Assembly (NCBI GenBank): GCA_000092065.1
Contig: CP000601.1
DNA length: 64,000 bases
From: Ostreococcus lucimarinus
Lineage: Eukaryota
Strand: one strand, 5' to 3'
Positions 270-59,897 of this stretch are shown piece by piece. The translations under genes and the position numbers were made by a program. Below the pieces are notes generated by a model, which did no database searches, was not told the DNA's origin, and saw only the letters and a list, made by a program, of their open reading frames with translations. Numbering within the stretch: the stretch's first letter is position 1; each line of letters starts with the position of its first letter.

Positions 270-2546
270 TCACTTTTTCTTCGCCGATGGCTTCTTCGCG
301 AGACCGCTCGGACGCGCGGACGACGGCGCGTGCGTCGAGACGCTCGAGCCGCGACGCTTGGCGGTTGATTTCGTCGACATCGGAGCGCTCGAGGGTAAGC
401 CTGCGGGACGCGCGCGTCTCGTGCGAGGAGACTTTGTCGGAGAAGCGTCATTTTCGACGTCAGACGTCGCTTTTGAGTTCGGAGGCGGCTGCGAACCATC
501 AGAAACTTTGAAGAGATTTTCCAACGCTTCGTAGTTGATTTTCGAGCTGCCCTTCTTTTTAGCTAAGACTTGACGCGCAGCTTCCGCGGGAGTCTCCGCG
601 GGCAGCGTGTCGGGGGCTTTTCTATGCTTCTTTTTCGTCGGCGCGCTCGTGCGGCTGGCGGCTTGCTCTTTCAAGGCTTGGAATTCCAAGTACTCCTTGT
701 TCATCTCAGACCAAACCAAACGACGAAGGTTGACTTCGTTTTCGTTGTGAATGTACGAATCGATTTCATCGTCGTCAACGTCCGAGAGCGTATCGATGAC
801 TTCGTTATCCTCCTTGGCGACGAGACCGTCGCTTTCAACGACCGCAAGCGCGGCCTTCGATGACGTTTGCGATGGATCGAACGGCGTCGTTTGGAAAGCC
901 TCGACGTCGTGCGGCGAATGCTTTGCCAACTGCGCCAGAGCTGAATCGTCGAAACACTTCGCGGCTATTAAAAAGTGTAAGACCAGCGCGTCCACTTGCG
1001 CGATGCGTTCACCTTCGTTGTTCACAAAGGTTTCGTAGTTTGGATGGAGCTCACACATATGCATCTTCGACAGTCGCGCCTTGGAGAGATCGCTTGTAAA
1101 CGGTAAGCAAACGAGTTCGGCCCATCGAGATCCGACGAGCAGGCGCAGGGCGTCCTCGGCGCGTCTCAAGAAATCAGCGTCGACCGGCTCGCGGCGACTA
1201 GTTTGAACGTGATGTTGCTGTTGCTGCTTTTGCCCCTTTTTCGTCATATTCCTCGCCGAAGTCGCGCGTTTCGACGAGCAAGGTAAGGCCAAGGGCTGAA
1301 CTGAATTCAACGGCGTAGGCGACGCGAGCAGCGCGCTCAAGTCTTGCTCGAGCGCCGAGTTAAATTCTTGCGTCAACGCGTCTTCGTCTCCCAATTCGCC
1401 CGACGACAGCGCGGGCAACAAAAGCTTTTGTTTTGCATCGATTTTCCGCTTCGCTTCTGCGCGCATGAACGCGGGCGGATCGGCGCCTCCCACCGAACCC
1501 CCCGAAATTCTAACGTAATCCACGTAACACGCGCGACACATTCCGTGCGCAAAGTGCGGAATGTTTTCGTTGTCTTTGTGCACACAGCTCAGCACCGACA
1601 TTGGGCTCGACGCTAGCGATTTTGTGTTTTTATTCGCTTCTTCTTCAGCCTCAAACGTGCGAGCTTGCGTGTCAAACTCCTCGATCGACAGCGCCGCGCT
1701 CGGCGTGTTTTCGAATTCGCTCAGACGCTTCTTCAGCGTCGATTCGCCGACGTGCACCACAGCCACGACATCGCGCTTGCTCGGACTGAATCCATGAATT
1801 TGAGCGGCGACCCACAACGCGGCACCACAAATTCCATTCGGACGACGACCAGTCTGCATCCAATCCCGCTTCATGGACGCCACGAGCCGCAGCGCCGTGT
1901 TCGCCACGGTGTGCATCCGTCGTCCCAAGTTCAACTTGTCCGCGAATCGATGAATGAACAGACTCGGATCGATCGGCTTTTGCATGAGCGGATGCTGCTC
2001 CAGTCGCAACAACCGACACAACTGTAAGAACACGCCCCCCAAAACGTACACGTTCGTCTGTAAAATATCCGCGAAATCAATCAACATGTACGGTCTCGAT
2101 TCCTGTCGACAGATGATGTACATGCACGCCCCCGCCACTTGCGAAATCCTTCGCCCTCGCGTAAAATTTCTCTGCACCGCGAGCTTATACAGCCGATGCG
2201 CCGCGTCCACGACGTCCTCCCTCGGTCGTATCCCCAACCGATCCGCCAACTGTTTAATCTCCAGCTTCCCTCGATACAGCGTGCGCTCGTGCGAGTCCAA
2301 CTGCACGCCGTACAGTCTTCCGCCTCGCGTCGCCCGTATCACCCCGTGCGCCACCCCGCTCTCCGGCACGTAGTGTCCATCCGGCACGGACGCTCCCTGC
2401 GCGTTCTTCACGAACGTCGCGTCCGCGCTGAACGCCGCGCGCTCGTCTAAAATCTTCCCGCACGTCGTGCAGCACGTGAACCCGTTCGCCTCGTTCGTCT
2501 CCGCCGCGACCCGTTTCCCGCACGTCTCGCACCACCGGTGCACCAT
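270..2546 (-). CDS. BRF1: Transcription factor IIIB subunit BRF1 (TFIIB-related factor)
   Basis: N-terminal TFIIB zinc ribbon (MVHRWCETCGKR...FTCCTTCGKIL) followed by two cyclin-like repeats (RISQVAGACMYIICRQE..., ICGAALWVAAQIHGF) and a long C-terminal extension. Start taken at the Met preceding the zinc ribbon (ATG at 2546); the six-frame ORF continues upstream only through a stop-free GC tract. Confidence 0.8.
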   Translation of the reverse strand: MVHRWCETCGKRVAAETNEANGFTCCTTCGKILDERAAFSADATFVKNAQGASVPDGHYVPESGVAHGVIRATRGGRLYGVQLDSHERTLYRGKLEIKQLADRLGIRPREDVVDAAHRLYKLAVQRNFTRGRRISQVAGACMYIICRQESRPYMLIDFADILQTNVYVLGGVFLQLCRLLRLEQHPLMQKPIDPSLFIHRFADKLNLGRRMHTVANTALRLVASMKRDWMQTGRRPNGICGAALWVAAQIHGFSPSKRDVVAVVHVGESTLKKRLSEFENTPSAALSIEEFDTQARTFEAEEEANKNTKSLASSPMSVLSCVHKDNENIPHFAHGMCRACYVDYVRISGGSVGGADPPAFMRAEAKRKIDAKQKLLLPALSSGELGDEDALTQEFNSALEQDLSALLASPTPLNSVQPLALPCSSKRATSARNMTKKGQKQQQQHHVQTSRREPVDADFLRRAEDALRLLVGSRWAELVCLPFTSDLSKARLSKMHMCELHPNYETFVNNEGERIAQVDALVLHFLIAAKCFDDSALAQLAKHSPHDVEAFQTTPFDPSQTSSKAALAVVESDGLVAKEDNEVIDTLSDVDDDEIDSYIHNENEVNLRRLVWSEMNKEYLEFQALKEQAASRTSAPTKKKHRKAPDTLPAETPAEAARQVLAKKKGSSKINYEALENLFKVSDGSQPPPNSKATSDVENDASPTKSPRTRRARPAGLPSSAPMSTKSTAKRRGSSVSTHAPSSARPSGLAKKPSAKKK

Positions 2547-2671
2547 CGCGCGCCGCACCGCGCACCTCGCGCACCTCGCGCACCTCGCGTCCCGCGCGCA
2601 CCGCGCCGTCCTCTCCCGTCGTCGCGCGTCGCGAGCCCAATCCTCGTCGCCCAATCGTCCCGCGCCGACTC

Positions 2672-2790
2672 GACGAAAAACAACCCTCGTATGGCGATCC
2701 CGGACGGACGAAAAACACCCTCGTGTGGCGATCCCGGACGAAAAATACCCTCGTATGGCGATCCCGGACGAAAAACACCCTCGTGTGGCG
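2672..2790. repeat. Tandem repeat, about 30-bp unit x4 (GACGAAAAAYACCCTCGTRTGGCGATCCCG) in the BRF1/WD-gene divergent promoter
   Basis: Four near-identical head-to-tail units seen directly in the sequence, about 130 bp upstream of the BRF1 ATG. Confidence 0.85.
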
Positions 2791-2988
2791 ACGTCCAGCG
2801 CGGTCGCCGGCCGACGGGCCGCGTCAGCGCGCGCGACGCGGACGCGGACGCGCGCGACGCGCGGCAGTCGGCGGCGCGCGTCGGCCGGGCGATCGCGACG
2901 CGCGCGCTGACGCGGACCGTCGGCCGCGACGCGAGGCGCGACGCGAGGCGACCGACGAAGGACCGACGGGGCGACGGACGCGGTGGTT

Positions 2989-3075
2989 GACGGACGGACG
3001 GACGGACGGACGGACGGACGCGCGACGACGCGCGACGACGGGACGACGGGACGACGGGACGAGGCGACGAGGCGA
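2989..3075. repeat. Compound microsatellite (GACG)n / (GGGACGAC)n
   Basis: gacggacggacggacggacggacg followed by gggacgacgggacgacgggacgagg; creates a spurious ORF N-terminus. Confidence 0.8.
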
Positions 3076-3216
3076 ACGTCGATGGACGACGGCGCGAGAA
3101 GCGCGCGCGCCAGAGCGCGGACGAAGACGGCGCGGGACGAGGACGAAGACGGCGCGGGACGAGGCGCGGAGGCGGCGCGCGACGACGGGGCGGCGACGAC
3201 GACGCGAACGACGCGG

Positions 3217-4860
3217 ATGGACGAGGACGGCGCGGGAGGATTCGCGCGACGGAGTCGAAATATATTCGCCGACGCGCAGCGACGGCAGTGGTGCAGAGAG
3301 CGGCAGATCGGGGAGCGACGGGGAGGCGCGGCGAGCGCGAAGACGGGGGCGACGGCGCTGCGGTGCTCGAATAAGCGCTTCGTGGAGGAATTGAGGCTGA
3401 GGGAGACGCTGGAGAAGCACGGTGGGTGCGTGAATTGCGTGAGTTGGAACGACGATGCGTCGCTGTTGATCTCTGGGAGCGATGATATGACGGTGTGCGT
3501 GTGGGGGTGCGGGGCGAAGATGCCGCTGAAGGGGTCGGCGTTCACGGGGCACACGCACAACGTCTTCGCGAGCGAATTCGTGCCGCAATCGAACAGCGCG
3601 TACTGCGTCACGACGTCCGCGGATGGAGACGTGCGGTTGGTGGATTTAGAGCGTGGGTTTCGAGGGCCCGCGCCCGCGCATTACGGTTATCGCCTGCGCG
3701 GGGCGAATCAACCGAATTCCGAGTGCAGTCGCTCGCTCTGGCACGGTCGAGGCGCGGGGATGGGGTTCGGCATGACGTTCGTGCCGAACGAACCGAATAC
3801 GTTTTTGTCGTGCCATCAAGACGGTCGCGTTCGTTTGTTCGACTTGAGGCAAAGTCACGGTGGTTTCGAAGGAAACTCACACGAAATCGTCGTCGATTTG
3901 AGCGCGTGCGGGCCGACGTCGGAAATCGTGTTCGACCCGACGGCGCCTACGACGTTCGCCGCGTGCTCGGACGATCCTCACGTGCGCGTGTTTGATCTCA
4001 GACACGTCAAGAGTAACCGGCGAGAAGCGGCGCGCGAATGTCCAGCGGCACCGAGTCCGAGCACGTCGCCCACGGGTCAACCGATGTTTCTGAGATCGCC
4101 TCGGCCTTCGATGAATCACGACATTCCGTGCGTCATGATGCTCAGTCCGCTCGAGCTCGGTCGAGGCGTGCGAAGCCCGGGCTTTGAGGGTATATCTGGC
4201 CTGGCTTACTCGTCCAAGGGCGAACTCGCGATTAACTGCAAAGGCGACGACGTGTACCTGTTGGACACTCGCCGAGCGGCGGCGAATATCAATTCTGAGG
4301 AACGTATTTTTAAGTCGTTCTCCGTGCCGTGGGAAATGCCGATCACGCATCAGGCGGCGAAGAGGTACGTCGGACGCAGAAATGTGAAAACCTTCTTAAA
4401 GGGTGTCGCTTTTATGTGCGACGATGAGTACGTCACGACGGGTGGTGACGATGGCAACGTATACGTCTGGCACAAAGATACGTGCGAGCTCGTGTGCAAA
4501 ATGCAAGCAGACAGTCAGGTGGTGAACACCGTTTTGCCGCACCCGCACTTGCCGACCATCGTGTGCTGCGGTATAGACAATCACGTGCGCGTCTTCGAAG
4601 CTGGTGATGGTGGAGTGCATCTCGGCACCCCTCCCATGCGCGATGAACACGACGCTTGGGGATTTGACGAAGAAGATGACGAGGAAGAAGAAGATACGGA
4701 TGAAGACGATGAAGACGAAGCGAGCACCGATAGCGACGACGACCACCGCGGCGAAAATCTCGCGAGATGGTCTCGAGCGCTCGTCGATGCTGCGGATGCG
4801 CCAGAAGAGGATGACGACGATGATGCCGACTTTGAACCTGATTCGATGCGCGAAAACTAA
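3217..4860 (+). CDS. WD40-repeat protein, DCAF8/WDR42-like (DDB1-CUL4 associated factor-like) with acidic C-terminal tail
   Basis: Conserved block RFVEELRLRETLEKHGGCVNCVSWNDDASLLISGSDDMTVCVW...HTHNVFASEFVPQSN...CVTTSADGDVRLVDL resembles DCAF8. Multiple WD repeats, C-terminal poly-D/E. ORF opens at 2983 inside a microsatellite; likely start is ATG 3217 (or 3082). Confidence 0.65.
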   Translation: MDEDGAGGFARRSRNIFADAQRRQWCRERQIGERRGGAASAKTGATALRCSNKRFVEELRLRETLEKHGGCVNCVSWNDDASLLISGSDDMTVCVWGCGAKMPLKGSAFTGHTHNVFASEFVPQSNSAYCVTTSADGDVRLVDLERGFRGPAPAHYGYRLRGANQPNSECSRSLWHGRGAGMGFGMTFVPNEPNTFLSCHQDGRVRLFDLRQSHGGFEGNSHEIVVDLSACGPTSEIVFDPTAPTTFAACSDDPHVRVFDLRHVKSNRREAARECPAAPSPSTSPTGQPMFLRSPRPSMNHDIPCVMMLSPLELGRGVRSPGFEGISGLAYSSKGELAINCKGDDVYLLDTRRAAANINSEERIFKSFSVPWEMPITHQAAKRYVGRRNVKTFLKGVAFMCDDEYVTTGGDDGNVYVWHKDTCELVCKMQADSQVVNTVLPHPHLPTIVCCGIDNHVRVFEAGDGGVHLGTPPMRDEHDAWGFDEEDDEEEEDTDEDDEDEASTDSDDDHRGENLARWSRALVDAADAPEEDDDDDADFEPDSMREN

Positions 4861-5762: not shown

Positions 5763-6247
5763 CGACGTCTCGCGGCTCTCGAGAACGTCCTTACGCTTGA
5801 ATCCGTCCCTGCGCCGACGCGTCGCGAGCTCGCTCCGTCAGTCCCGTCCCTCGCGCGTATTCCGTCTCGTCGCGTCGCTCGCGTCGCTCGAATCCCATCC
5901 CATCGCATCGCGCGACGCACTCTAACTCCGCGAACGCCGTCCGCAGCTGATCTCGCGTCGCCTGCGCGCTCATCGCGTCGTCGTCGACCGTCGATCGCGC
6001 CACGTGTTGTCGGTCGTCGTCGCCCCGCGCGCCCGTCGCGACGACTCACGCCCGATCGCGCGTCGGCGATCGCGCCGTCGTCGCGTTCTCGCCGTCGACC
6101 GATCGCGATCGCGCGATCGCGTCGAGACGTCGCGTCGAGACGTCGTCGAATTGTGGCGTCGACGCGCGCGCGCATTCGCGTCGTCGCGTCGACTCGCGAG
6201 CGATTAGAATGACTCGTTCGTTACAAACTCGCGCCCGTCGTCGTCGC

Positions 6248-6676
6248 TCAAAACAATCCGAACAGTTTCTTCTTCGGCGCCTCCTCCTTCCCGCCCTTCC
6301 CGCCCTTCCCGCTCGTCGTCTTCGTCTTGCTCGACGTCGTCCCCGCGGCGACGCCGCCCCCCGGCATCGTCCGTCCCGCGCGCGACGGTCTCGCGCTCGA
6401 GATCGTCCTCTGAAACTCCCTTCGCGCCCCGAACGCGGTCGACGCCTCCTTCGCGCCCCGCGCCTTGCGCTTGTTCTCGTCGATCTTTCGCTGCTTCTCC
6501 GCCATGCGTCGTTGAATCTCCTTCGCGTCGATGTTCGGCCCGAACCCACCGAGGCTTTCGATCTTCGGGCGCGTCGCGCGCGCGCGTCGCGTCGTCGCCG
6601 TCCCTCTTCGCGTCGTCACGCGCGTCGCGACGAGCGCGCGCGAGCGCGTCATCGTCATCGCGCGCGGCGTCGCCAT
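6248..6676 (-). CDS. Small lysine-rich protein with organelle-transit-peptide-like N-terminus (hypothetical)
   Basis: ORF MATPRAMTMTRSRALVATRV... then KIESLGGFGPNIDAKEIQRRMAEKQRKIDENKRKARGAKEA...GKGGKGGKEEAPKKKLFGLF. The N-terminal MA(S/T)-rich style resembles other transit peptides in the window. No family recognised. An alternative start is ATG 6505. Confidence 0.3.
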   Translation of the reverse strand: MATPRAMTMTRSRALVATRVTTRRGTATTRRARATRPKIESLGGFGPNIDAKEIQRRMAEKQRKIDENKRKARGAKEASTAFGARREFQRTISSARPSRAGRTMPGGGVAAGTTSSKTKTTSGKGGKGGKEEAPKKKLFGLF

Positions 6677-6960
6677 CGCGTCGTGCTTCGCGTCGTCGCG
6701 TTGTGTCGCGACGCGTCGCGTCCGCGCGCGTTCGGGGTCCGCGCGGCGCGGCGCGCGCGCGGAGGGCGCGCGCGCGAGGGCGCGCGCGCGAGGACGGTCT
6801 CAATCGGACGGTCTCGTCGAACGGAAGGCGCGAGCGCGGGCGGCGCGGGCGCGCGGGCGGTCGGACGGACGACGAACGACGCCATCGAGCGACGCGCGGC
6901 GGCGATGCGGTGACGACGCGCGCGAATCGGGCGAGGAAACGACGCGCGCGCGCGTCCGGG

Positions 6961-9900
6961 ATGCGCGCGCGCGGACGCGGGCGCGAGCGCGCGACGGGGG
7001 CGCGCGAGGAGGCGACGCGACGACGCGCGGGATGTCGTTGGGGACACTCGACGCGCGCGCTGACGGCGCTCGCGCCGGCGCTGTGCGTCACGCTCGGCAG
7101 CGGGGGGGAGACGATGGTGACCGTGGTCGCGATCGGGGCGAGCGCGGCGCGCGGGATGGACGCGATGGGGAACGGAGAGGGGGCGCTGGGCGCGATTTGG
7201 ACGACGGCGACGGCGGCGCTCGGGACGCTGCTGACGAGAGGGAGCTGGCGGACGAGCGCGACGGTCGGGACGTCGTGCGCGCTGCTCGCGGTGAATGGGG
7301 TGAATTTGTTTTTATTTTGCTCGTGGTGCACGCTGCAATTTCGGTGGATACACGAGTCGCACGCGGGCGCGGCGGCGACGTGCGAGCGTTTGATTTTCGC
7401 GCTGTGTCCGCCGACGACGACGACGATTCTGACGTGGGCGTTCGCGAGCGCGAGCGCGGGAGCTGAGAGAGCGGCGTTTTACGGCTCGGTCGTGTCGTTG
7501 ATCACGCATCGGATGTTTTTGTTTCCGTGCGCGAGCGCGTGCGCGGCGGTGACGAAGACGAACGGGCCTCCGTCGGACAAGCGCTCGGCGTTGACCGAGA
7601 GCGACGCCGAGTACGCCACCGTGGCCACGCTCGGCTTACCCGTCGCGTTGTATTTATGGACGAACCTCGACACACTGTTCAAGTCCCTCGATCACGTCTT
7701 CGCGTGTGGGGCGTTGGTGACGGTCCCGGTGTTGTATTTAATAGCCGCCGGCACGGAGAAGTCGTTGTGGTGGCGCGCGCGCGGCGTCGACGTGGCGTCG
7801 AAAAGGATGGAAACCGCCGTGCTCCTCTTCGCACTCACTGGATTTGCGGTGAGCGTTGAAGGTGGAATAATATTTAGTGAATTTGCCGAGTACATCGAAA
7901 TCATGGCTCCTTTGAATTACATCATGGTGACGGTTTCCGTCCACAGCGCGCTGGCAGTTTTCGCCGCGTGCTACGCAAACGCCGTCGGCGACGGCGTCCC
8001 GACGGGTGCGGTGAAGGCGACGTTGGCTCTGTCTACGTCGACCGCAATTTGTGCTTTGGGTGCACCTCTGTGGATGATTCCGATCCCCATCGCCGGATCA
8101 TCGTCATTCGTCAAATATTATTACGAGGACCGAGAGCCGAAGGATTACGGCGTGTTTGCCGCGAGTTGCGTCGGATGCTTTTCGTGGTTTCTTTCGAAGA
8201 ATTTCTGGTCACTCGATGTGCGCGTGGGAGCTTTCGACGTCAAACAATTGTGTGTCGCCATATTACTCCTCGCCGTGGCGGCTTTGGCTTTGCCAGCGGT
8301 GTTGAATACGAAAAGCGCGCGCGCGCCGACGGTTGGCGTCCTCGTCGTCTGTTACGTCTCGGCGCTCGCAACGATTGAACAAATCCTGAGTCAAGCGACG
8401 CATGACGACGATTCTTTGATTTATCCACCATATTTGGTCATCGTCACTTCCATCAGCGGCTTCTTGGCGAGTCGAGGCCTCGTCATCAGCGGGAGAATCA
8501 GTCGCGAATTTGGCTGGGTGATGCAGAGCGTGTGCGGCGCAAAGCTCTCCATGCTCTTTGTTCGCGGTTTGAAGGAAATGTTCAGCGTCTTGGTGGTCGT
8601 GCTCGCCATCACCGCTCCGCACGCGATGTCACGGCGAATGACTCAATTATCTCCGGGCGCGAGCGTTGGTTATTGCGTCGCTTTGGTGTTCTCTTTGGTA
8701 TTCGCTCGGTTTGCGATGTTTGACGTTATATTTGAACTCTCGGGTCACCGACCGACGGACGCGACGCTCTTCGGTGGACTCCTCCTGATCACGGGGGCGA
8801 GCTTGGCGTCCGTGGTAACGCGACAAAGTTACGGTGATGACATGTTTAGCAAACGATTGATGATGCTCTTGAGTTTCTGTGGCGTCTTTCTCATCACCTT
8901 CCGACCGCCGATGCCTTGGAAGGGCGAGGTGGGCATGTGGTATGACGCCGAACACGTTCCCGACTCTGAAGAAGACGAAGCGAGAATGTACGGCGTGCGC
9001 GAGAACGCGCATCATGGATGGCCGAGCTGGTTGCTGATGTTAGCCGCGCTCACCGCGATATTCGCCGTCTCGTCTCCACGACAACAGACAAAATCAACGT
9101 CAACGATTCGAATCGCCTTAAGCGCCGTGTGCGGTGGGAGCGTTGGTTTATATATGGCGCTGGAATTCTTCGTCCAGCAAGTGGCGCTGACGGCACTACT
9201 ATTTGTCGCGTGTGCGCTGGTGGGAGTGTTCTTGTCTTTCACGTACAGCCCTTCGCCGAAGTCTTCGCGCTGGTTGCCTTACGTGTATTTATCGTTCGTC
9301 TCCGTTCTCGGCTTGGCGTACGTCACACAAATGGGTGGCTCAGACGAGACTGTGGACGACCATCAGGCGAGAATGGAAGGAAAATTCGGTGTCGTCGGCG
9401 TTTTCGCCGGGACTTCGCTGCAAATCGCGTTTGCTCTGAAGTTGAGAATCAAAACGAGCCTGGAGAGCGTGCAACATCGACGACGTCAAGGCGGTACTTC
9501 ACCGTTCCTTCCCGCCACTGGTCGCAGTCGTCCGGAATATTTCCGCGGTGTCGCGAGCAGAAACGAGCACAGAGAACTCAAGGCAAAGGCGATCGCTTGG
9601 ATGCCAATCATCGGGAACATCGCCACGCTCACGTCCTTTCTCGCGTGCGTGGTGCTGAGCGATGAGTTGGCCGATGGCTCCGCGTTTTCGGTCTTCGTCC
9701 TCGCGCCCATTCTGCTTCTTCTTCACCAAGACTCGGTGATATTTCCTATACTGGAAGACAGCCAACGATACGCTCCACCGCTCGCGATGATCGTGGGTAA
9801 GATGTGCTGGGACGCCGTCGCCGCCATCCTCGCCGGCCCGAACCGAGTTCACGTTCTCGCCGCGACCGCCTCCAAGTTGCCGTGGATGACGCTCAACGCG

Positions 9901-10131
9901 TTGAGTCTGCTCCTCGCTTCGGTGAATAGCATCAATTTGGTGCACTACCTCGCCACGAGCGTTCGCACGGACGGGATGACGCTCATCTTGACCGCCCCGC
10001 TCGCCGTCGTGGCGCCGTTTCTTTCAAAAATTCCCTCCGTGCGCGCGCTCGCCTTCACCAGTCTCATCGCCGTCGTCACCCAGCACACCCTCCAGCGTCG
10101 AGCGAAGATCGTCGGGCTGAAGTATTTATAG
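6961..10131 (+). CDS. Large polytopic membrane protein (>20 predicted TM segments), unknown family
   Basis: About 1000-aa continuous ORF with many hydrophobic helices (e.g. LNYIMVTVSVHSALAVFAACYANAV, LCVAILLLAVAALALPAVL, LLMLAALTAIFAVSS) and coding-type GC3 usage. ORF opens at 6703 in a stop-free GC tract; plausible starts are ATG 6961 or 7114. Confidence 0.5.
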   Translation: MRARGRGRERATGAREEATRRRAGCRWGHSTRALTALAPALCVTLGSGGETMVTVVAIGASAARGMDAMGNGEGALGAIWTTATAALGTLLTRGSWRTSATVGTSCALLAVNGVNLFLFCSWCTLQFRWIHESHAGAAATCERLIFALCPPTTTTILTWAFASASAGAERAAFYGSVVSLITHRMFLFPCASACAAVTKTNGPPSDKRSALTESDAEYATVATLGLPVALYLWTNLDTLFKSLDHVFACGALVTVPVLYLIAAGTEKSLWWRARGVDVASKRMETAVLLFALTGFAVSVEGGIIFSEFAEYIEIMAPLNYIMVTVSVHSALAVFAACYANAVGDGVPTGAVKATLALSTSTAICALGAPLWMIPIPIAGSSSFVKYYYEDREPKDYGVFAASCVGCFSWFLSKNFWSLDVRVGAFDVKQLCVAILLLAVAALALPAVLNTKSARAPTVGVLVVCYVSALATIEQILSQATHDDDSLIYPPYLVIVTSISGFLASRGLVISGRISREFGWVMQSVCGAKLSMLFVRGLKEMFSVLVVVLAITAPHAMSRRMTQLSPGASVGYCVALVFSLVFARFAMFDVIFELSGHRPTDATLFGGLLLITGASLASVVTRQSYGDDMFSKRLMMLLSFCGVFLITFRPPMPWKGEVGMWYDAEHVPDSEEDEARMYGVRENAHHGWPSWLLMLAALTAIFAVSSPRQQTKSTSTIRIALSAVCGGSVGLYMALEFFVQQVALTALLFVACALVGVFLSFTYSPSPKSSRWLPYVYLSFVSVLGLAYVTQMGGSDETVDDHQARMEGKFGVVGVFAGTSLQIAFALKLRIKTSLESVQHRRRQGGTSPFLPATGRSRPEYFRGVASRNEHRELKAKAIAWMPIIGNIATLTSFLACVVLSDELADGSAFSVFVLAPILLLLHQDSVIFPILEDSQRYAPPLAMIVGKMCWDAVAAILAGPNRVHVLAATASKLPWMTLNALSLLLASVNSINLVHYLATSVRTDGMTLILTAPLAVVAPFLSKIPSVRALAFTSLIAVVTQHTLQRRAKIVGLKYL

Positions 10132-25901: not shown

Positions 25902-26678
25902 CTATCGTCTTCGTTTCACGCCCGTGCTCGGACCGTCCTCGTCCATGTCCTCGTCCTCGTCGACGCGCTCGGCGACGTCCGGCTCGGCGGCTTTGAGTTG
26001 TTTCTTCGTCTCCTCTATCGCGGCGTTGAGCTCGTCCTCGCGCGCCAGTGATTCCGCTTTTTCACTCGACACGTACGCAATTTGCTCATTCAAACTCGCC
26101 AACATCGTTTCCGTTATCGCGTGCCACCGCGAGACGTCCGCGATGACGCCGTCGAGCGCGCTCGCTCGCGCGTCTCTCGCCTTCGCGCGTCGAACCCGTA
26201 AAACTTTATTTTTCGGATCGAGCCTTCCCCACACGATTTCTCCCAGGCACTCGTCGACGATGAACTTTTCCATCGCGCGTTCGCTCGTGAACTCCAGCTC
26301 TCGCATCAATCGTACGTACGCGATCGTCCCTCCCTCCGCGCACAGCGCGCACGTCGACAGTCGCTTCAGTTTCGCCTCCTCGCGCGTCGTCAGCGTCGGC
26401 AACTTTTCGTTTGCCGCTCGCGCGCGATATTCGCGCAGCGTGCCGTGCGCGAATATTTCCACCATCGCGCGCACCTCCGCCGCGCACTCGAACCCCTCCG
26501 TGCGCTCCATGGCGTGCAGTATCTTCGTCACGCGCATCGCGTCGCGCGCCTCGAGCGCCTCGCCGAGCGCGTCGCGATCGAGCGTCTTCGTCGTCGCGAT
26601 CGACGTCGCGCACCGCGTCACCGCGCCGTCGTCGGGCGTCATCGACGCCATCGCATCGTCCTCGTCGTCGGCGCGCAT
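25902..26678 (-). CDS. PCI-domain protein, COP9 signalosome subunit 7-like
   Basis: IFAHGTLREY...LPTLTTREEAKLKRLSTCALCAEGGTIAYVRLMRELEFTSERAMEKFIVDECLGEIVWGRLDPKNKVLRV resembles the CSN7 PCI/winged-helix region. Coiled-coil and acidic C-terminus. Confidence 0.55.
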   Translation of the reverse strand: MRADDEDDAMASMTPDDGAVTRCATSIATTKTLDRDALGEALEARDAMRVTKILHAMERTEGFECAAEVRAMVEIFAHGTLREYRARAANEKLPTLTTREEAKLKRLSTCALCAEGGTIAYVRLMRELEFTSERAMEKFIVDECLGEIVWGRLDPKNKVLRVRRAKARDARASALDGVIADVSRWHAITETMLASLNEQIAYVSSEKAESLAREDELNAAIEETKKQLKAAEPDVAERVDEDEDMDEDGPSTGVKRRR

Positions 26679-26810
26679 CGCGAGCGAACGACGCGCGCGA
26701 GTGTCGATCGATCGGCCCCGAATCCCAATCGCGCCATCTGTTCATCCATCCATCCACGCATCCATTCTTCTCTCCGCGGTCACATCGCGACGTCGGCGCG
26801 GTCGAGGGCG

Positions 26811-29414
26811 ATGCGAGGCGGACGACGCGACGCGATGCGCGCGCTCGCGCGACGATGCGCGGGCGCGACGACGGGCGCGACGACGGGCGCGACGACGACG
26901 ACGACGACGACGACGACGGCGCGGCGGTTACCGCGCGCGCGCGAGCGACGGGTCGAGCGGGACGCGGGACGCCGCGCGCTGGCGACGCGGGCGGCGCGGG
27001 ACGTCGAACTGACGTGCGCCGCGTTCGCGGTGTGGGGGGCGAACACCGCGGTCGGGAAGACGCTGGTGTCGGGAGGACTGGCGCGCGCGGCGCGGAGCGC
27101 GGAGGCGGGGACGCTCTTCGTGAAACCCGTGCAGACGGGATTCCCAGAAGATTCAGACGCCGCGTTCGTGGCGCGCGTGAGCGGTGGCGTGGAGAGCATG
27201 GGCGAACACGCGGCGGTGGCGGCGGGAGAAACGGCGAGGAAAGGATTAGAGGGCGATCGAGGGGCGTGGGCGCACACCGAGTTTGCGTGGCGACGCCCCG
27301 CGGGGCCGCACGTGAGCGCGGCGGAGGAGGGGAGAGGCGTTTTAGACGATGACATCGTGCGAGCGACGTCGAGATATTTGAGAGAATTCGCGGAAAAAAT
27401 GCGAGCGAACGAATCGGGGCAGCAGCGAGCGTTGGCGCTCGTCGAAACCGCGGGAGGGGTGGCGAGTCCGGGGCCGTCGGGAACGCTGCAATGCGAGCTT
27501 TTGCGCGGGCTACGATTGCCAGCCATACTCGTGGGTGACGGGCGTTTGGGCGGGATATCTGCCACCACGGCCGCGTACGAATCACTGCACGCGAGAGGGT
27601 ACGACATCGTCGCCATCGTCATGGCGGACGATGATGGTTTGGCCAATCACAAAGCCATGGCAAAGATTTTGCCGAGCGAAACCCGCGTCTGGGCGCTTCC
27701 GCCTCTGCCCCCAGAAGGACAAGCGGACGCTTGGCTCGAAGACTCAAAGCACACGTTCGACGATTTACTGAAATACATCACAAAATGGCACGACGATCGC
27801 ATCAAAACTCTGCAAAGTCTTCCAGACGAGGCTCTGACGAAGATTTGGTGGCCGTTTACGCAGCACGCGATGGTGGAGCGCGACGCCGTCACGGTGATCG
27901 ATGGGAGATATGGTGAAGATTTCGCAATCTACGCCCAAAACACGCACTCATCGAAAGATGGCTCCATAGTACTTCGCTTTGATGGTTCAGCGAGTTGGTG
28001 GACGCAAGGTTTGAGTCCAGAATTGCAGCAAGAGTTGGTTCGCACCGCGACGCATGCGGCGGGACGATTCGGGCACGCGATGTTTCCAGAAAACGTGCAC
28101 CAGCCCGCCGTGGACGCGACGACGGCATTATTAGAAGGACCTGGGAAAGGTTGGGCAGCTAGAGCATTTTATTCCGACAACGGATCGACTGCGACAGAGG
28201 TTGGGTTGAAAATGGCTTTTCGCAAGTTTTACGTCGACGCAGGCTTTGTGTCTAAAGACGGCAATCAGAGAGCGAAAGATCTCGTCAACAAAGGAGCCGA
28301 TGACTTACCTCCGCTGCGAATAATAGCATTGGATGGTTCGTATCACGGTGATACTCTCGGTGCGATGGATATGCAATCACCGAGCGTTTTTACGGGTCCA
28401 ATGCAAACGCCCTGGTACCAACCTCGCGGACTGTTCCTTCAGCCTCCGAGTTTAGCGATCAGAGAAGGACGTTGGAACGTGGCGTTGCCGCGTGATGGAT
28501 TATTGAACGACGGCGATCGACTCTTCCGCGAAGGCAAAGATGTGGATGAGAACACCAGTTGGACTAGCAAGGAGGCGGCTTTCAACATCGCTGCGCGTCT
28601 CGACAGCCCGCTCGCAAAAGAATACAAAATTGCGATCGACAAAGTCTTAGAACGCGCCGCGAAAGACGCCAAGGATAATAACATGGGTCACGTCGGGGCT
28701 TTAATCATGGAACCCGTGCTTCACGGTGCAGGTGGGATGGTTTTGATTGATCCGTTGTTTCAAAACATTCTCATGAAGTCGTGCCGCGAGCGAAAGATTC
28801 CAGTCGTCTTGGACGAGGTATTTGCTGGCATTTGGCGATTAGGCACGGAAGGTGCGTGGGAAATCATAGGCGAAAAACCCGATATTTCGTGCTACGCAAA
28901 ACTTCTCACTGGTGGGCTCATTCCCATGTCAGCCACGCTCGCGACGGCGGATGTCTTCGACGCTTTTTACGGCCCTGGAAAAGCCCAGGGCTTGTTACAC
29001 GGGCACTCGTACACGGCATACCCCATGGGATGCGCCGTGGCGGCGAAAGCGCTTTCTATGTACAAAGACCCCGCGAAAAATCGCAACGTGATCGTCTCAA
29101 AGTCTTCGAGTACGGGCGAGCCTACGTCGGTGCTTCGCGAGCTCTGGGACGAGGACGCGTTGAAGAAAATTTCCACTTTGAGCAACGTTCGCCGAGTCAT
29201 CGGTCAGGGTTGTGTCCTCGCCGTCGAGCTCGAGGTCGAAGGTGAAGGTGGTTATAGCTCCAACGCCGCTCGAGACGTCGTCATGCGTCTTCTTCCCCAC
29301 TCCATCCAAGCGCGTCCTCTGGGTAACGTCGTCTACCTCATGTGCGCGCCGACGACGTCCAAAGACGCGTGCGACGTCCTCTTGAGCGCGCTCGCGACAG
29401 AGCTCGCGGCGTGA
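26811..29414 (+). CDS. Bifunctional dethiobiotin synthetase / 7,8-diaminopelargonate aminotransferase (BioD-BioA fusion, plant BIO3-BIO1 type) with transit-peptide-like leader
   Basis: N-terminal BioD P-loop domain (FAVWGANTAVGKTLVSGGLA...FVKPVQTG). C-terminal class-III PLP aminotransferase (FYSDNGSTATEVGLKMAFRKF, ALDGSYHGDTLGAMD, LIMEPVLHGAGGMVLIDPLF, VVLDEVFAGIWRLG, KLLTGGLIPMSATLA). ORF opens at 26445 in a GC tract; start ATG 26811. Confidence 0.85.
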   Translation: MRGGRRDAMRALARRCAGATTGATTGATTTTTTTTTARRLPRARERRVERDAGRRALATRAARDVELTCAAFAVWGANTAVGKTLVSGGLARAARSAEAGTLFVKPVQTGFPEDSDAAFVARVSGGVESMGEHAAVAAGETARKGLEGDRGAWAHTEFAWRRPAGPHVSAAEEGRGVLDDDIVRATSRYLREFAEKMRANESGQQRALALVETAGGVASPGPSGTLQCELLRGLRLPAILVGDGRLGGISATTAAYESLHARGYDIVAIVMADDDGLANHKAMAKILPSETRVWALPPLPPEGQADAWLEDSKHTFDDLLKYITKWHDDRIKTLQSLPDEALTKIWWPFTQHAMVERDAVTVIDGRYGEDFAIYAQNTHSSKDGSIVLRFDGSASWWTQGLSPELQQELVRTATHAAGRFGHAMFPENVHQPAVDATTALLEGPGKGWAARAFYSDNGSTATEVGLKMAFRKFYVDAGFVSKDGNQRAKDLVNKGADDLPPLRIIALDGSYHGDTLGAMDMQSPSVFTGPMQTPWYQPRGLFLQPPSLAIREGRWNVALPRDGLLNDGDRLFREGKDVDENTSWTSKEAAFNIAARLDSPLAKEYKIAIDKVLERAAKDAKDNNMGHVGALIMEPVLHGAGGMVLIDPLFQNILMKSCRERKIPVVLDEVFAGIWRLGTEGAWEIIGEKPDISCYAKLLTGGLIPMSATLATADVFDAFYGPGKAQGLLHGHSYTAYPMGCAVAAKALSMYKDPAKNRNVIVSKSSSTGEPTSVLRELWDEDALKKISTLSNVRRVIGQGCVLAVELEVEGEGGYSSNAARDVVMRLLPHSIQARPLGNVVYLMCAPTTSKDACDVLLSALATELAA

Positions 29415-55808: not shown

Positions 55809-55930
55809 GCGCGCGCGTCGTCAGTCTCGCGTCGAGCCCGGTCGATCGCGCCGCGACACGCGCCTTCGCGATGATTCCGCGCGCGCCGCATCGCGTCGAC
55901 GAAATCGCGCACCTCGAGCGCGCAGATGAA

Positions 55931-56016
55931 GCGTTCGAACGCGTTCGCGCGCGTCGGCGTCGCGTCGATCGATCGTTCGCACCCTTTGCGATCGCGCCGT
56001 CGCCTTCACGGCGCAC
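55931..56016. repeat. 86-bp perfect direct repeat, copy 2 (upstream of the ZnT9-like ORF, in the divergent region before the SPP gene)
   Basis: Identical to 54924-55009, 1007 bp away. Confidence 0.9.
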
Positions 56017-56140
56017 GACGTCGTCGTCGTCGCCGACGGCGCGCACGTCACGCTAAACATCGCTCGCCGCACGCGTCGTCGCGAAGTGCCGGCGCGCGGT
56101 CGCCGAGGGCGATTTCGTTTTTTCGCGAACCATCGCGCGT

Positions 56141-56207
56141 CGATCGACGGACGTCGATCGATCGATCGATCGATCGAACGATCGACCGATCGATCGATCG
56201 ATCGACC
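56141..56207. repeat. (CGAT)n-type tandem repeat
   Basis: cgatcgatcgatcgatcgatcgaacgatcgaccgatcgatcgatcgatcgacc. Confidence 0.85.
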
Positions 56208-56399
56208 GCGCGCCAAGCCCCCTCGCGCCCGCGCGCGCGCCCGCCCAGGGTCCAGCGGTCCAGGGGCGGCGTCGAATCAATCGTCCGCCCTTCCGCAGTG
56301 CGCGGCGTGACCCCGGCGCCGGCGTCGCGCGCGCTTCGACGACGACGGTCCCGACGATCGGACGACCCGACGAACGCGCGCGCGCACGGCCGGATCGAC

Positions 56400-59300
56400 A
56401 TGGCGTCGCGCGTCTCCGCGAGCGGGCGCGCGAGCGCGAACGCGCGAGGAATCGTGACGCCGCATCGTCGGCGTGGACGGACGGCGACGACGACGAAACG
56501 GGCGACGCGAGGGCGACGGTGCGCGCGCGTCGTGCGCGCGAACGCGTCGTCGACGAACGGTGGGCCGGGGCGATGGGATCGCGCGATGCAGACGCTGTCA
56601 TCCGTCGCCGATCCCGCGGCGACGACGGCGATGCTGGACGAGCCTTTGACGCCGCACGAAGAGATTCGTCGAGGAACGCTCGCGAATGGGTTGAAGTACG
56701 TCATCTTACCGAACAAAGTTCCCGAGGGGAGATTTGAGGCGCACTTGGAGATGCACGTCGGGTCCGTGGACGAACGCGAAGACGAGCAAGGGCTGGCGCA
56801 CCTCGTCGAGCACGTCACGTTTTTGGGTTCTCGAAAACGAGATCAGTGGCTCGGGAGCGGTACGCGAGGGAACGCGTACACGGATTTCCACCACACCGTG
56901 TTCCACATCCACGCACCGACGACGAACAAGGATGGACATTACATGCCGCCCAACGTGCTGGACATTCTCTACGACGTCGCGTTTGCGCCGCAACTCTTGG
57001 ACACTCGCGTGGCGAAGGAGAAGAAAGCCGTGCTCGCCGAGGCTCAAATGATGAACACGATCGAGTACAGAGTGGACTGTCAGCTTCTAGAGCATTTGCA
57101 CTGGGACAACCTCTTGGGCACGCGATTTCCGATCGGTAAGCTCGATCAGGTGGAAGCGTGGCCGGCGCAGGCGGTGCGAGACTTTCACGCGCGCTGGTAT
57201 TTCCCAGCCAACGCCACGCTCTACGTCGTGGGCGACTTCGATGCCTCCGTGGACGAAGTCGAGGGTATGATTTCCGCCGCGTTCGACGAAGCGGCGCCCG
57301 CGGAAGGCGCGGAAGAAGCCGAGTCTCCTCTCAAACGTCACGCGGTGCGTCCTCCGGTGAAGCACGCGTACGGGGCGCCGTCGTACGAGCTCGACGAAAT
57401 TCAACGCTCGAACGACGAGGCGAAGGCGTCGGGCAAAGACGACCCGTTCTTGCCTTTCGTCGCCCCCGAGGGTAAAGTGTCCATGTTCCAGCACGAACAC
57501 TTGTCCAACGCGAGTTTCAACATATTTTCAAAATTGGCCGTCAAGCCGCTCGAAAAGATGGGCGACTTGCACCGGACGATTTTGCAGCGCATTGTGTTGT
57601 TGGTGTTGCAGAGCCGCATTCAGGCGAGATACGCGGAAACTAATGCGGATTACAAACGCATTGAACTCGATCATAGCGACAGCGCGAGAGAGGGGTGTTG
57701 CGTCAGCACCGTCACCGTGACGTGCGAGCCGAGAGAGTACGAATTCGCCTTGCAAGTCGCCGTCGAGGAATCTCGACGATTGCAAAAGTTTGGATTGACG
57801 CCGAGCGAGCTCGATCGTTTTAAGGCGGCGATGTTGAGAGATTCTGAACAGCTCGCGCAGCAGGCGGGATGCGTGCCGAGCCTCGAAAATCTCGACTTTG
57901 TCATGGAGCAGGACGCCTGCGGACACGTCGTCATGGACCAGGTCGCGGGTCACGAGGCCTTGGTGCGCATGTCTGATTACATCACGCTCGAGGCGTGCAA
58001 CGGCGCGTGCGATGAGCTTTTAGGTTTTATCGGTGAGTACGGCGTGGAGAACAATCGCAAACCGAACAGCGGTAAGTGCACCGCCATCGTCGCGTGCGTC
58101 CCAGCGACGATGACGAACGTCGACGGCGAGACGGTGCCGTTCGATATCACGCCCGAGCGCATAGAACAAGTTTTGGCGGCGGATTACGGTGAAATCACAG
58201 AGCCCGAGGATATCTTTGTGCCGGAGGTGTTGATTGCGGATGACGAAATCAACGCCCTCATCGAGCAAACGGCGCCGACGTTTACCGAGGCGACGTATCA
58301 CGAGCCGACCGGCGTGTACCAGCGCACGCTGAGTAACGGTATTCGCGTCAACTACAAGGTGCTCGACGCCGAGCCTGGGAGCGCGTTCTTACGACTCGTC
58401 GTCCCGGGTGGTCGTTCGGTTGAGAGCCCGAACATCGGGCCCGGCGGAATCGGTTCGTCGGCGGTCGGTTTGCGCACCGTGCAAGAGGCTGGCGACGTCG
58501 GCGAATGGTCGCGCAAGCAAATCGAGCTCTTGACGATGCAACACTTGCTCGTGTACGACGTCGAGCCCGAGGTCGAGTACATGTTTTTGGATTCCGCGTT
58601 CGCCACGGATGGAGGCTTGAGGACTATTCTCGAGATCATGCACCTCACGCTGACGAAGCCGACGTGGGACGAGCAAGCGCTCGAGCGCGTCAAGGACATT
58701 TACCGCATGTTTCAGATTAACACGAACAAGAACATCGAGTTGCTCACGCATGACACCGTCAACGCCGTGATTTACGAAGACCGAAGAATCATGGACCCGA
58801 ACAAGGAGGCACTCCAGGCGCTGACGCTGGATGGCGTTCGAGACATGATCGAAGCTCAATTCGCGAGCGGGGCTTTGGAACTCAACATCGTCGGCGACAT
58901 CATCCCCGAAGAAGTCGACGAAATGGTTCTCGCGTTTATGGGATCGATTCAGACCAAGCCCGCGCCGCCGTTGCCGCAAGTGCCCCCGCTGAAATTGAAA
59001 GAGGTGCCAAAGGATGATCCGGTGCGCGCGCAGCGGTTGTGGTTGAAGGACAGCGACGAAAGAGCGTGCGCGGTGGCCGCCGGACCGGGGCCATCCATGT
59101 GGGCGCCGATGACGAGTCTGTACTCTGAAATTCCGAGCTTTGTCAATCAAGACGCGTACACGCCGGAACAGATTGCAGCCTTGCGCGATCCCGTGAACGA
59201 GGTGGCGTCGGCGAAGGGGAACCCATTCGCACAGCAGTCTGCGCGACGCGCGAATTCTTTGGCGACGTATTGCGCGGGGATGATGCTCGCAGAAGTTATC

Positions 59301-59897
59301 GGTGGTAGATTGTTCACAACGGTGCGCGACGCGTTGGGTCTGACGTACGACTGCAACTTTACAATGTCGTTTGGATTACAAAACAACGACGCGACGACGT
59401 ACAGGTTGTTGGTGACGTCGACGCCGGAAAAAATTGATGAAGCTCTCAACGCCGGCGTGCGCGTGTTGCGTGGATTTCAGATGCAGCGCGTGAGCCAACG
59501 CGAGGTCGATCGCGCGCGTTTAACGCTGTTGAGTCGTCATGAGATGGATTTGAAGACGAACAACTACTGGGCCGATTTGATGCAGTGCACCAACACTCCA
59601 GATTTAGCGCCGCTGAAGAAGATTCAGTGCGTCGCTGATTTACCCCTCATGTACGACGCGATGACCGTGGACGATCTTCAAGAAGTTTACGATCGTCTCG
59701 GCTTGAGCGAAGGCGAGATCTTCACCAGCGTGACGATCGCCGGGCAGACAGAGCCGCCTCCATTCCTGTCGAAGAAGGACGTCGACGCCGCCGCGCTCGC
59801 CGCCCAGACGCTGACCGCCGCGCTTGGTGGCATCAACATCGCCGAAGCGATCAAGAGATTGAAGAAAGAGCAGTCTCCGTCCGCGAGCGCGGAGTAG
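56400..59897 (+). CDS. SPP: Stromal processing peptidase-like M16 zinc metallopeptidase (chloroplast SPP/CPE homolog)
   Basis: Transit-peptide-like MASRVSASGRASANARG.... Inverted zinc motif HLVEH in GLAHLVEHVTFLGSRKRDQWLGSGTRGNAYTDFHHTVFHIHAP, nearly identical in pattern to plant SPP (GIAHMIEHVAFLGSKKRE...NAYTDFHHTVFHIH). About 1165 aa multi-domain M16. ORF opens at 55926 in a GC tract; start ATG 56400. Confidence 0.85.
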   Translation: MASRVSASGRASANARGIVTPHRRRGRTATTTKRATRGRRCARVVRANASSTNGGPGRWDRAMQTLSSVADPAATTAMLDEPLTPHEEIRRGTLANGLKYVILPNKVPEGRFEAHLEMHVGSVDEREDEQGLAHLVEHVTFLGSRKRDQWLGSGTRGNAYTDFHHTVFHIHAPTTNKDGHYMPPNVLDILYDVAFAPQLLDTRVAKEKKAVLAEAQMMNTIEYRVDCQLLEHLHWDNLLGTRFPIGKLDQVEAWPAQAVRDFHARWYFPANATLYVVGDFDASVDEVEGMISAAFDEAAPAEGAEEAESPLKRHAVRPPVKHAYGAPSYELDEIQRSNDEAKASGKDDPFLPFVAPEGKVSMFQHEHLSNASFNIFSKLAVKPLEKMGDLHRTILQRIVLLVLQSRIQARYAETNADYKRIELDHSDSAREGCCVSTVTVTCEPREYEFALQVAVEESRRLQKFGLTPSELDRFKAAMLRDSEQLAQQAGCVPSLENLDFVMEQDACGHVVMDQVAGHEALVRMSDYITLEACNGACDELLGFIGEYGVENNRKPNSGKCTAIVACVPATMTNVDGETVPFDITPERIEQVLAADYGEITEPEDIFVPEVLIADDEINALIEQTAPTFTEATYHEPTGVYQRTLSNGIRVNYKVLDAEPGSAFLRLVVPGGRSVESPNIGPGGIGSSAVGLRTVQEAGDVGEWSRKQIELLTMQHLLVYDVEPEVEYMFLDSAFATDGGLRTILEIMHLTLTKPTWDEQALERVKDIYRMFQINTNKNIELLTHDTVNAVIYEDRRIMDPNKEALQALTLDGVRDMIEAQFASGALELNIVGDIIPEEVDEMVLAFMGSIQTKPAPPLPQVPPLKLKEVPKDDPVRAQRLWLKDSDERACAVAAGPGPSMWAPMTSLYSEIPSFVNQDAYTPEQIAALRDPVNEVASAKGNPFAQQSARRANSLATYCAGMMLAEVIGGRLFTTVRDALGLTYDCNFTMSFGLQNNDATTYRLLVTSTPEKIDEALNAGVRVLRGFQMQRVSQREVDRARLTLLSRHEMDLKTNNYWADLMQCTNTPDLAPLKKIQCVADLPLMYDAMTVDDLQEVYDRLGLSEGEIFTSVTIAGQTEPPPFLSKKDVDAAALAAQTLTAALGGINIAEAIKRLKKEQSPSASAE

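Follow-up and report, generated by a model that had tools for sequence, protein, structure and literature searches.

Which protein is encoded by the long open reading frame (ORF) at positions 6703-10131 of the plus strand in a 64,000-nucleotide (nt) stretch of Ostreococcus lucimarinus contig CP000601.1 (GenBank assembly GCA_000092065.1; hereafter, the window), and where does its gene begin? An earlier reading made from the sequence alone (the sequence-only reading) had described the product as a polytopic membrane protein of unrecognised family and had tentatively compared it with NEF1-like proteins of plants. Our analysis indicates that 6961-10131 (+) is very probably a gene of one exon and encodes the orthologue of plant NEF1 in this picoalga, a membrane protein of 1056 amino acids (aa). 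The NEF1 family was already known by name; what is added here is the gene model, the pan-eukaryotic spread of the family, and the lack of any solved-structure relative.

Identification of the gene product as a NEF1 orthologue

An exhaustive search of 1.84 billion representative sequences with a Mamiellales profile revealed 633 proteins at E ≤1e-3 and 103 at E ≤1e-30, many of them full length (1000-1150 aa). Proteins named "No exine formation 1" from Chara braunii (E 2.7e-133) and Vanilla planifolia (E 5.3e-127) both matched profile positions 13-1056. A match from Pycnococcus provasolii was named "NEF1-like protein", and further matches came from Chlorokybus, Closterium, and the glaucophyte Gloeochaete. 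When the Vanilla protein was used as query, >100 angiosperm proteins of 1090-1140 aa were found, most of which (>60) were named "No exine formation 1". BLASTP comparison with Sorghum NEF1 showed 27% identity (E 1e-84) between residues 117-1056 of the window protein and residues 185-1138; the alignment extended to a common C-terminus, GLKYL/GMRYI (family form G-[LM]-[KR]-Y-[LI]). The designation "unrecognised family" was thus wrong in the narrow sense, since proteins named NEF1 are collinear with the window protein from about residue 13 to the C-terminus. The tentative NEF1-like comparison was borne out at sequence level by the Chara, Vanilla, Sorghum, and Pycnococcus proteins, and the ortholog search across algae and plants that had been suggested yielded full-length proteins carrying the NEF1 name.

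Plant NEF1 (At5g13390, OsNEF1) and the NEF1-like proteins of charophytes and prasinophytes belong to the same family as the window protein; all are polytopic, all-helical, and collinear end to end. Motifs in common with plant NEF1 are TLQFxW, ER, SLWW, YPxYLV, KLxML, WMPxxGNxAT, LAPILLLLxQD, QRYxP, and C-terminal G-[LM]-[KR]-Y-[LI]. The two differ in length (1056 aa vs. 1090-1140 aa in plants) and in the segment that precedes the N-terminal family motif (25 aa vs. ~45-65 aa in angiosperms), and identity of the window protein to angiosperm NEF1 is just 25-28%. Two points weigh against the orthology. Arabidopsis NEF1 (At5g13390) was not among the matches listed, and the link to the Arabidopsis gene rests on the database names of plant orthologues together with published identities of rice and moss homologues. 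According to published accounts, rice and Arabidopsis NEF1 share 60% identity and the best moss match shows 44% (PMC12346373, PMC3220415, PMC6136457).

A single-sequence, word-indexed search returned only close unnamed relatives among the matches listed, and a word-indexed homologue search with the diverse alignment gave no additional members. The exact window protein and its relatives with 54-67% identity (P0001-P0013) came only from JGI, ENA, and Logan metagenome or run assemblies among the matches listed; that single-sequence search showed no NCBI or UniRef entry or name for any of these proteins among the matches listed. Reference annotations of these picoalgae may lack or mis-model the NEF1-like gene, or the word-indexed search may have missed them.

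Gene model and start codon

The frame is stop-free from 6703 to 10131 (1142 codons counted from a bacterial-code GTG) and ends in a TAG stop at 10129-10131. The sequence-only reading had termed it the longest clean ORF in the window, with a coding-type third-position bias. From 6961 onward the frame is clean and coding-like: GC contents at the first, second, and third codon positions were 0.56, 0.50, and 0.72, indicating a coding-type codon bias, and the probability of encountering no stop in 1056 codons was 6e-16 at local base composition. The preceding 258 nt (6703-6960), in contrast, are open by chance. GC content there is 80% and flat over codon positions (0.80/0.79/0.81), four of the six frames are stop-free, and the probability of no stop is 0.43. 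Nor is the frame the longest in the window; that is the ORF at 55926-59897 (+), which encodes a 1323-aa M16 (insulinase-type) peptidase.

ATG 6961 and ATG 7114 had both been proposed as candidate starts. The first in-frame ATG is at 6961. Residues 26-39 counted from this codon read RWGHSTRALTALAP (RWGHSTRAL..LAP), and the family consensus of the motif is F-x-Y-N-x-R-x-A-x-x-L-x-P, with R32 and P39 invariant in alignment A4. Because this family-wide motif lies between the two candidates, upstream of 7114 and downstream of 6961, family conservation places the start codon at ATG 6961, not at ATG 7114, and a predicted product of 1056 residues follows. Orthologues with 54-67% identity aligned without gaps over the whole length of the window protein; therefore, neither introns nor several genes are indicated. 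Judged from these alignments, the correct gene model for the locus is one exon beginning at ATG 6961 and encoding a NEF1-like protein.

An alternative account of 6961-10131 would be that the frame is open only by chance in GC-rich DNA, or that it joins several smaller genes. Many spurious ORFs overlap the adjoining GC-rich tract in all frames, and the initial part of the 6703-10131 frame is indeed chance-open. However, the vanishingly small probability of an open frame of this length, the strong codon-position bias, and the end-to-end collinearity of orthologues from diverse eukaryotes, with identities ranging from 67% to as low as 19%, leave this account a negligible probability. The possibility of several smaller genes, which the sequence-only reading had itself raised, is excluded by that collinearity, and for 6961-10131 a chance or composite ORF is already refuted. 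Coordinates of the gene and its conserved elements are collected in Table 1.

Table 1. Features of the NEF1-like locus (positions are those of the window).
Feature	Position	Strand	Basis
Stop-free GC-rich tract, non-coding (5′ leader or intergenic)	6703..6960	+	80% GC, no codon-position bias, indels
NEF1-family coding sequence, single exon, 1056 aa + TAG	6961..10131	+	First in-frame ATG, collinear orthologues, codon-position GC
N-terminal family motif, aa 26-39	7036..7077	+	Alignments A1, A2, A4
TLQFRW ... CERLIF block with invariant Glu142	7330..7398	+	41-sequence conservation
IEQIL (invariant Glu473), acidic loop, YPPYLV (Tyr488/Pro489)	8374..8439	+	Family conservation
AKLSML with invariant Lys528, weakly hydrophobic helix	8539..8556	+	Family conservation, hydropathy
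Largest extramembrane loop, aa 648-686, acidic, conserved	8902..9018	+	RPPxPWKGEVGxWYDAEHVPDxxxDDARxYG
WMPIIGNIAT with near-invariant Asn886	9598..9627	+	Family conservation
Most conserved block, LAPILLLL then HQD, loop, QRYAPP (aa 914-940)	9700..9780	+	Windowed conservation 0.80
C-terminus GLKYL (plants GMRYI)	10114..10128	+	Family alignments

The upstream GC-rich tract and over-extended gene calls

In a 700-nt comparison with three otherwise identical marine metagenome contigs, the sole differences fell at ~6730-6805, and comprised frame-shifting indels of +1 and +4 nt and several substitutions. Segment 6703-6960 is not part of the protein. The (GCGC)n-like tract at ~6730-6805 looks like a hypervariable GC-rich simple sequence in a bidirectional promoter or leader. 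P0003, a 1201-aa protein called on metagenome contigs, starts at the equivalent of window position 6531; its N-terminal part runs antisense through the adjoining minus-strand ORF and reaches the true frame only via the GC-tract indels. The upstream starts, GTG 6703 and that at 6531 used in the 1201-aa call, were rejected as bacterial gene-caller artefacts in the stop-free GC tract.

Region 6046-7466 is crossed by six or more overlapping ORFs longer than 100 aa, which lie in different frames on the two strands and have Arg/Ala-rich low-complexity translations. These overlapping ORFs are artefactual, stop codons being depleted here, and have entered databases as proteins through bacterial gene callers; P0003 is an example. 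A 142-aa Lys/Arg-rich ORF at 6248-6676 (-), containing ...IESLGGFGPNIDAKEIQRRMAEKQRKIDENKRKA..., is divergent from the NEF1-like gene. A shorter version (85 aa) was called as a gene on environmental contigs, and a Pfam scan of the 142-aa ORF gave no match. If this ORF is real, the intergenic region that it shares with the NEF1-like gene is ~285 nt long with 80% GC.

Membrane architecture and predicted structure

An AlphaFold model built with 7 close sequences had a predicted local distance difference test (pLDDT) score of 37. The use of an alignment of 41 diverse family sequences fixed the quality, giving a mean pLDDT of 83.9 and a predicted template modelling score of 0.75. In the resulting model all secondary structure is helical: 32 helices are 11 residues or longer, mostly short loops join them, and ~28-30 of these helices are hydrophobic enough to span a membrane. 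Alignment-averaged hydropathy likewise revealed ~30 hydrophobic segments. Soluble parts are minimal; the loops include a conserved acidic one and a basic one. The product is thus predicted to be polytopic, all-helical, and almost entirely within the membrane. The sequence-only reading had proposed ~1000 aa with at least 20 hydrophobic helices and short loops; the model and hydropathy agree, at 1056 aa and ~30 helices.

Pfam and NCBIfam scans of the window protein and the 41 family members revealed no domain model that covers the family. One RWP-RK Pfam match among the 41 members was rejected, since it came from a probably merged Closterium gene model. Sequence and profile searches of PDB gave just noise matches to FAM155A (E ~8). 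For the known transporter superfamilies (ABC, MFS, RND, P-type, SLC), there was no Pfam or NCBIfam match and no similarity to a solved member, in agreement with the earlier statement that no such motif could be assigned; the remote homology to a well-characterised transporter family that might have overturned that statement was searched for and not found. The characteristic fold of GT-C and MBOAT transferases was also looked for, together with the catalytic Asp/Glu loop (GT-C) or His (MBOAT), and neither was observed. The likeness to MFS, RND, ABC, P-type ATPase, GT-C, and MBOAT proteins is limited to many transmembrane helices and conserved charges in or near the membrane. The NEF1-like protein has no known domain and no solved-structure relative in these searches.

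Conserved residues and motifs

Conservation was calculated over the 41 family sequences. Residues Glu142, Pro227, Glu473, Lys528, Pro649, Leu919, and Leu921 were invariant, and Asp67, Glu300, Arg583, Lys827, Asn886, Asp924, Arg936, and Tyr937 were 82-98% conserved. Many conserved Trp, Tyr, and Pro residues are situated at helix ends. In the TLQFRW block, which contains E142, W122 and F127 were conserved at 95% and Q126 at 90%; the Polysphondylium counterpart of this block is TLQFKW...ER. The extramembrane loop at residues 648-686 has 9 acidic vs. 4 basic residues and low pLDDT around 672-676. Besides invariant P649, its residues H665, P667, and D672 were conserved at 82-86%.

In the LAPILLLL block, P916, L918-L921, D924, R936, Y937, and P939 were conserved at 85-100%. 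The model shows an 11-residue helix (910-920) followed by a loop (921-937), and LAPILLLLxQD...QRYxP looks like a discontinuous or re-entrant helix in this prediction. The motifs that mark membership in the family (E142, E473, K528, LAPILLLLxQD, QRYxP, and C-terminal GxxY[LI]) were invariant or at least 85% conserved across the 41 members, and all are present in the window protein.

Distribution across eukaryotes

Full-length members were found in dictyostelids, as genome-derived models from Polysphondylium violaceum (KAF2075558.1) and Dictyostelium citrinum (KAN0021462.1). Other plastid-free members came from the amoeba Luapelamoeba, the ichthyosporean Chromosphaera perkinsii, two diplonemids, and the hemimastigote Spironema. 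The Polysphondylium protein matched the Mamiellales profile over 975 columns (probability 99.7%, E 1.8e-26) and shares the motifs TLQFKW, ER, SLWW, and YP. These homologues from Amoebozoa, Ichthyosporea, diplonemids, and Hemimastigophora, annotated as "transmembrane protein", are full length and carry the same motifs; they differ in having insertions in some loops and in belonging to organisms without plastids. Because their identity to green-lineage members is just 18-21%, they are not algal contamination. On the evidence of these alignments, the NEF1 family is present in both plastid-bearing and plastid-free eukaryotes. Literature searches revealed no report of non-plant NEF1 homologues, and no experimentally confirmed NEF1 localisation, activity, or structure.

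The segment preceding the N-terminal motif of the window protein is 25 aa long and includes 4 Glu, and the N-terminus is Arg/Ala-rich. Excluding one merged Closterium model (244 aa), the length of this segment was 16-63 aa in plastid-bearing lineages vs. 17-63 aa in heterotrophs. Polysphondylium, too, has a Ser/Thr-rich N-terminus, a feature that may have prompted the idea of a transit peptide in the plant proteins. The full-length homologues in plastid-free organisms and the lack of a lineage-specific N-terminal extension argue against plastid localisation as an ancestral or defining trait of the family, although members in the green lineage may be plastid-localised. The plastid-envelope framing of the sequence-only reading is not supported as a family property.

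A 2282-aa model from Synstelium polycarpum (P0103) has a NEF1-like N-terminal part followed by ankyrin repeats, a starch-binding CBM20 domain, and GDE1-type C2 and glycerophosphodiester phosphodiesterase (GDPD) domains. It was the only such case when over-long family members were checked for fused domains, and it probably represents two adjacent genes merged by the predictor. If the fusion were genuine, it would link the family to glycerophospholipid metabolism.

Proposed function and alternative explanations

In reviews that cite Ariizumi 2004 (PMC12346373, PMC3220415, PMC6136457), NEF1 (At5g13390) is described as an "unknown plastid integral membrane protein", and the nef1 mutant as having less lipid and sterol-ester in tapetal plastids, a primexine defect, and male sterility. 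Since the host of the window protein is unicellular and has neither pollen nor exine, the role of the protein at the organism level must differ from that of plant NEF1.

In transporters and channels, substrate or ion sites typically feature a broken helix and conserved charges within or beside membrane helices. We tentatively suggest, as a possible though doubtful reading, that the NEF1-like protein acts in the endomembrane system, or in the envelope of an organelle, as a membrane transporter or translocator whose substrate is lipid-like or otherwise small. This reading is preferred because the membrane-adjacent conserved charges and the broken helix are combined with a lipid phenotype of the plant mutant. 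The working centre would have two parts: polar residues conserved at the membrane or close to it (Glu142, Glu300, Glu473, Lys528, Asn886, Arg936) and the invariant broken-helix element LAPILLLLxQD...QRYxP. Land plants would require the transport activity for primexine formation and for the accumulation of lipids in tapetal plastids; in the wall-less picoalga, it may have a general housekeeping function in the handling of lipids or membranes. Several points weigh against a transporter. Comparison of the model with solved structures revealed no resemblance to the fold of a transporter, a channel, a scramblase, or an enzyme. Internal inverted or tandem repeats are typical of many transporters; however, hhalign self-comparison and pairwise comparison of five segments revealed no significant repeat of either kind. 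The plant phenotype is also pleiotropic and could have an indirect cause.

A narrower explanation is that the protein is specifically a lipid or metabolite transporter of the plastid envelope. The alga has a plastid and the N-terminus of the protein is Arg/Ala-rich, and reviews citing Ariizumi 2004 refer to NEF1 as an integral membrane protein or transporter of plastids with an effect on the accumulation of plastoglobule lipids. This explanation appears unlikely in view of the full-length homologues in plastid-free dictyostelids, an ichthyosporean, diplonemids, and a hemimastigote, and of a short pre-motif segment, with its 4 Glu, that is no longer in plastid-bearing lineages than elsewhere. 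The plastid assignment in plants was reportedly a prediction.

Very large polytopic enzymes exist (GT-C, MBOAT), and among the defects of the plant mutant is the loss of primexine, a matrix rich in polysaccharides. The protein could therefore be a membrane-embedded enzyme, e.g., a lipid-linked glycosyl- or acyltransferase or a polymerase that builds extracellular matrix, and the invariant acidic residues near helix ends (E142, E473) and the conserved acidic loop 648-686 are consistent with such an activity. We regard an enzyme as quite unlikely; the hallmarks of the GT-C and MBOAT enzymes were looked for and not found. It is highly unlikely that the protein has no substrate and serves as a structural element, scaffold, or membrane organiser. 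Such a role would fit the lack of a recognisable catalytic or transport signature and of fold relatives in the searched databases and solved structures, the very large size with minimal soluble parts, and the conserved Trp, Tyr, and Pro at helix ends; however, invariant charges in or beside hydrophobic helices and a strict broken-helix motif are more typical of active sites.

Genomic context

Neighbouring genes encode ordinary eukaryotic housekeeping proteins (V-SNARE, eIF1A, Vps36/EAP30), and a Staygreen gene is located further along. A large ORF at 270-3611 (-) encodes a BRF1/TFIIB-like protein. The product of 26445-29414 (+) has AAA_26 and class-III aminotransferase domains and resembles a bifunctional biotin-synthesis enzyme. 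In 2-kb bins across the window, GC content alternates between ~0.51-0.56 and 0.64-0.69; this alternation is consistent with compact genes that have very GC-rich tracts, such as that at 6000-7000, between them or at their heads.

Significance

One broader interpretation, which we consider plausible but still open to considerable doubt, is that NEF1 is an ancient ~30-helix protein, probably dating from the last eukaryotic common ancestor, whose fold is absent from PDB and which founds a new transporter or lipid-handling class. As part of this interpretation, NEF1 would have been retained in Archaeplastida, Amoebozoa, Discoba, Hemimastigophora, and early-branching Holozoa; it would be neither a "novel plant protein" nor a plastid invention, and the pollen-wall phenotype would lie downstream of an endomembrane function. 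The wide taxonomic spread and the absence of fold relatives among solved structures were observed directly, and "new class of transporter" is conjecture.

For the annotation of this locus, NEF1-like replaces "hypothetical protein" or the over-extended 1201-aa call. The confident model of ~1000 residues, which has no solved counterpart, places NEF1 among the larger conserved eukaryotic membrane proteins that lack a fold or activity assignment. The plastid localisation of NEF1 is routinely cited and, in view of the full-length homologues in plastid-free organisms, deserves experimental re-testing. The function of NEF1 would be easier to study in Dictyostelium or in a compact, transformable picoalga than in Arabidopsis anthers.

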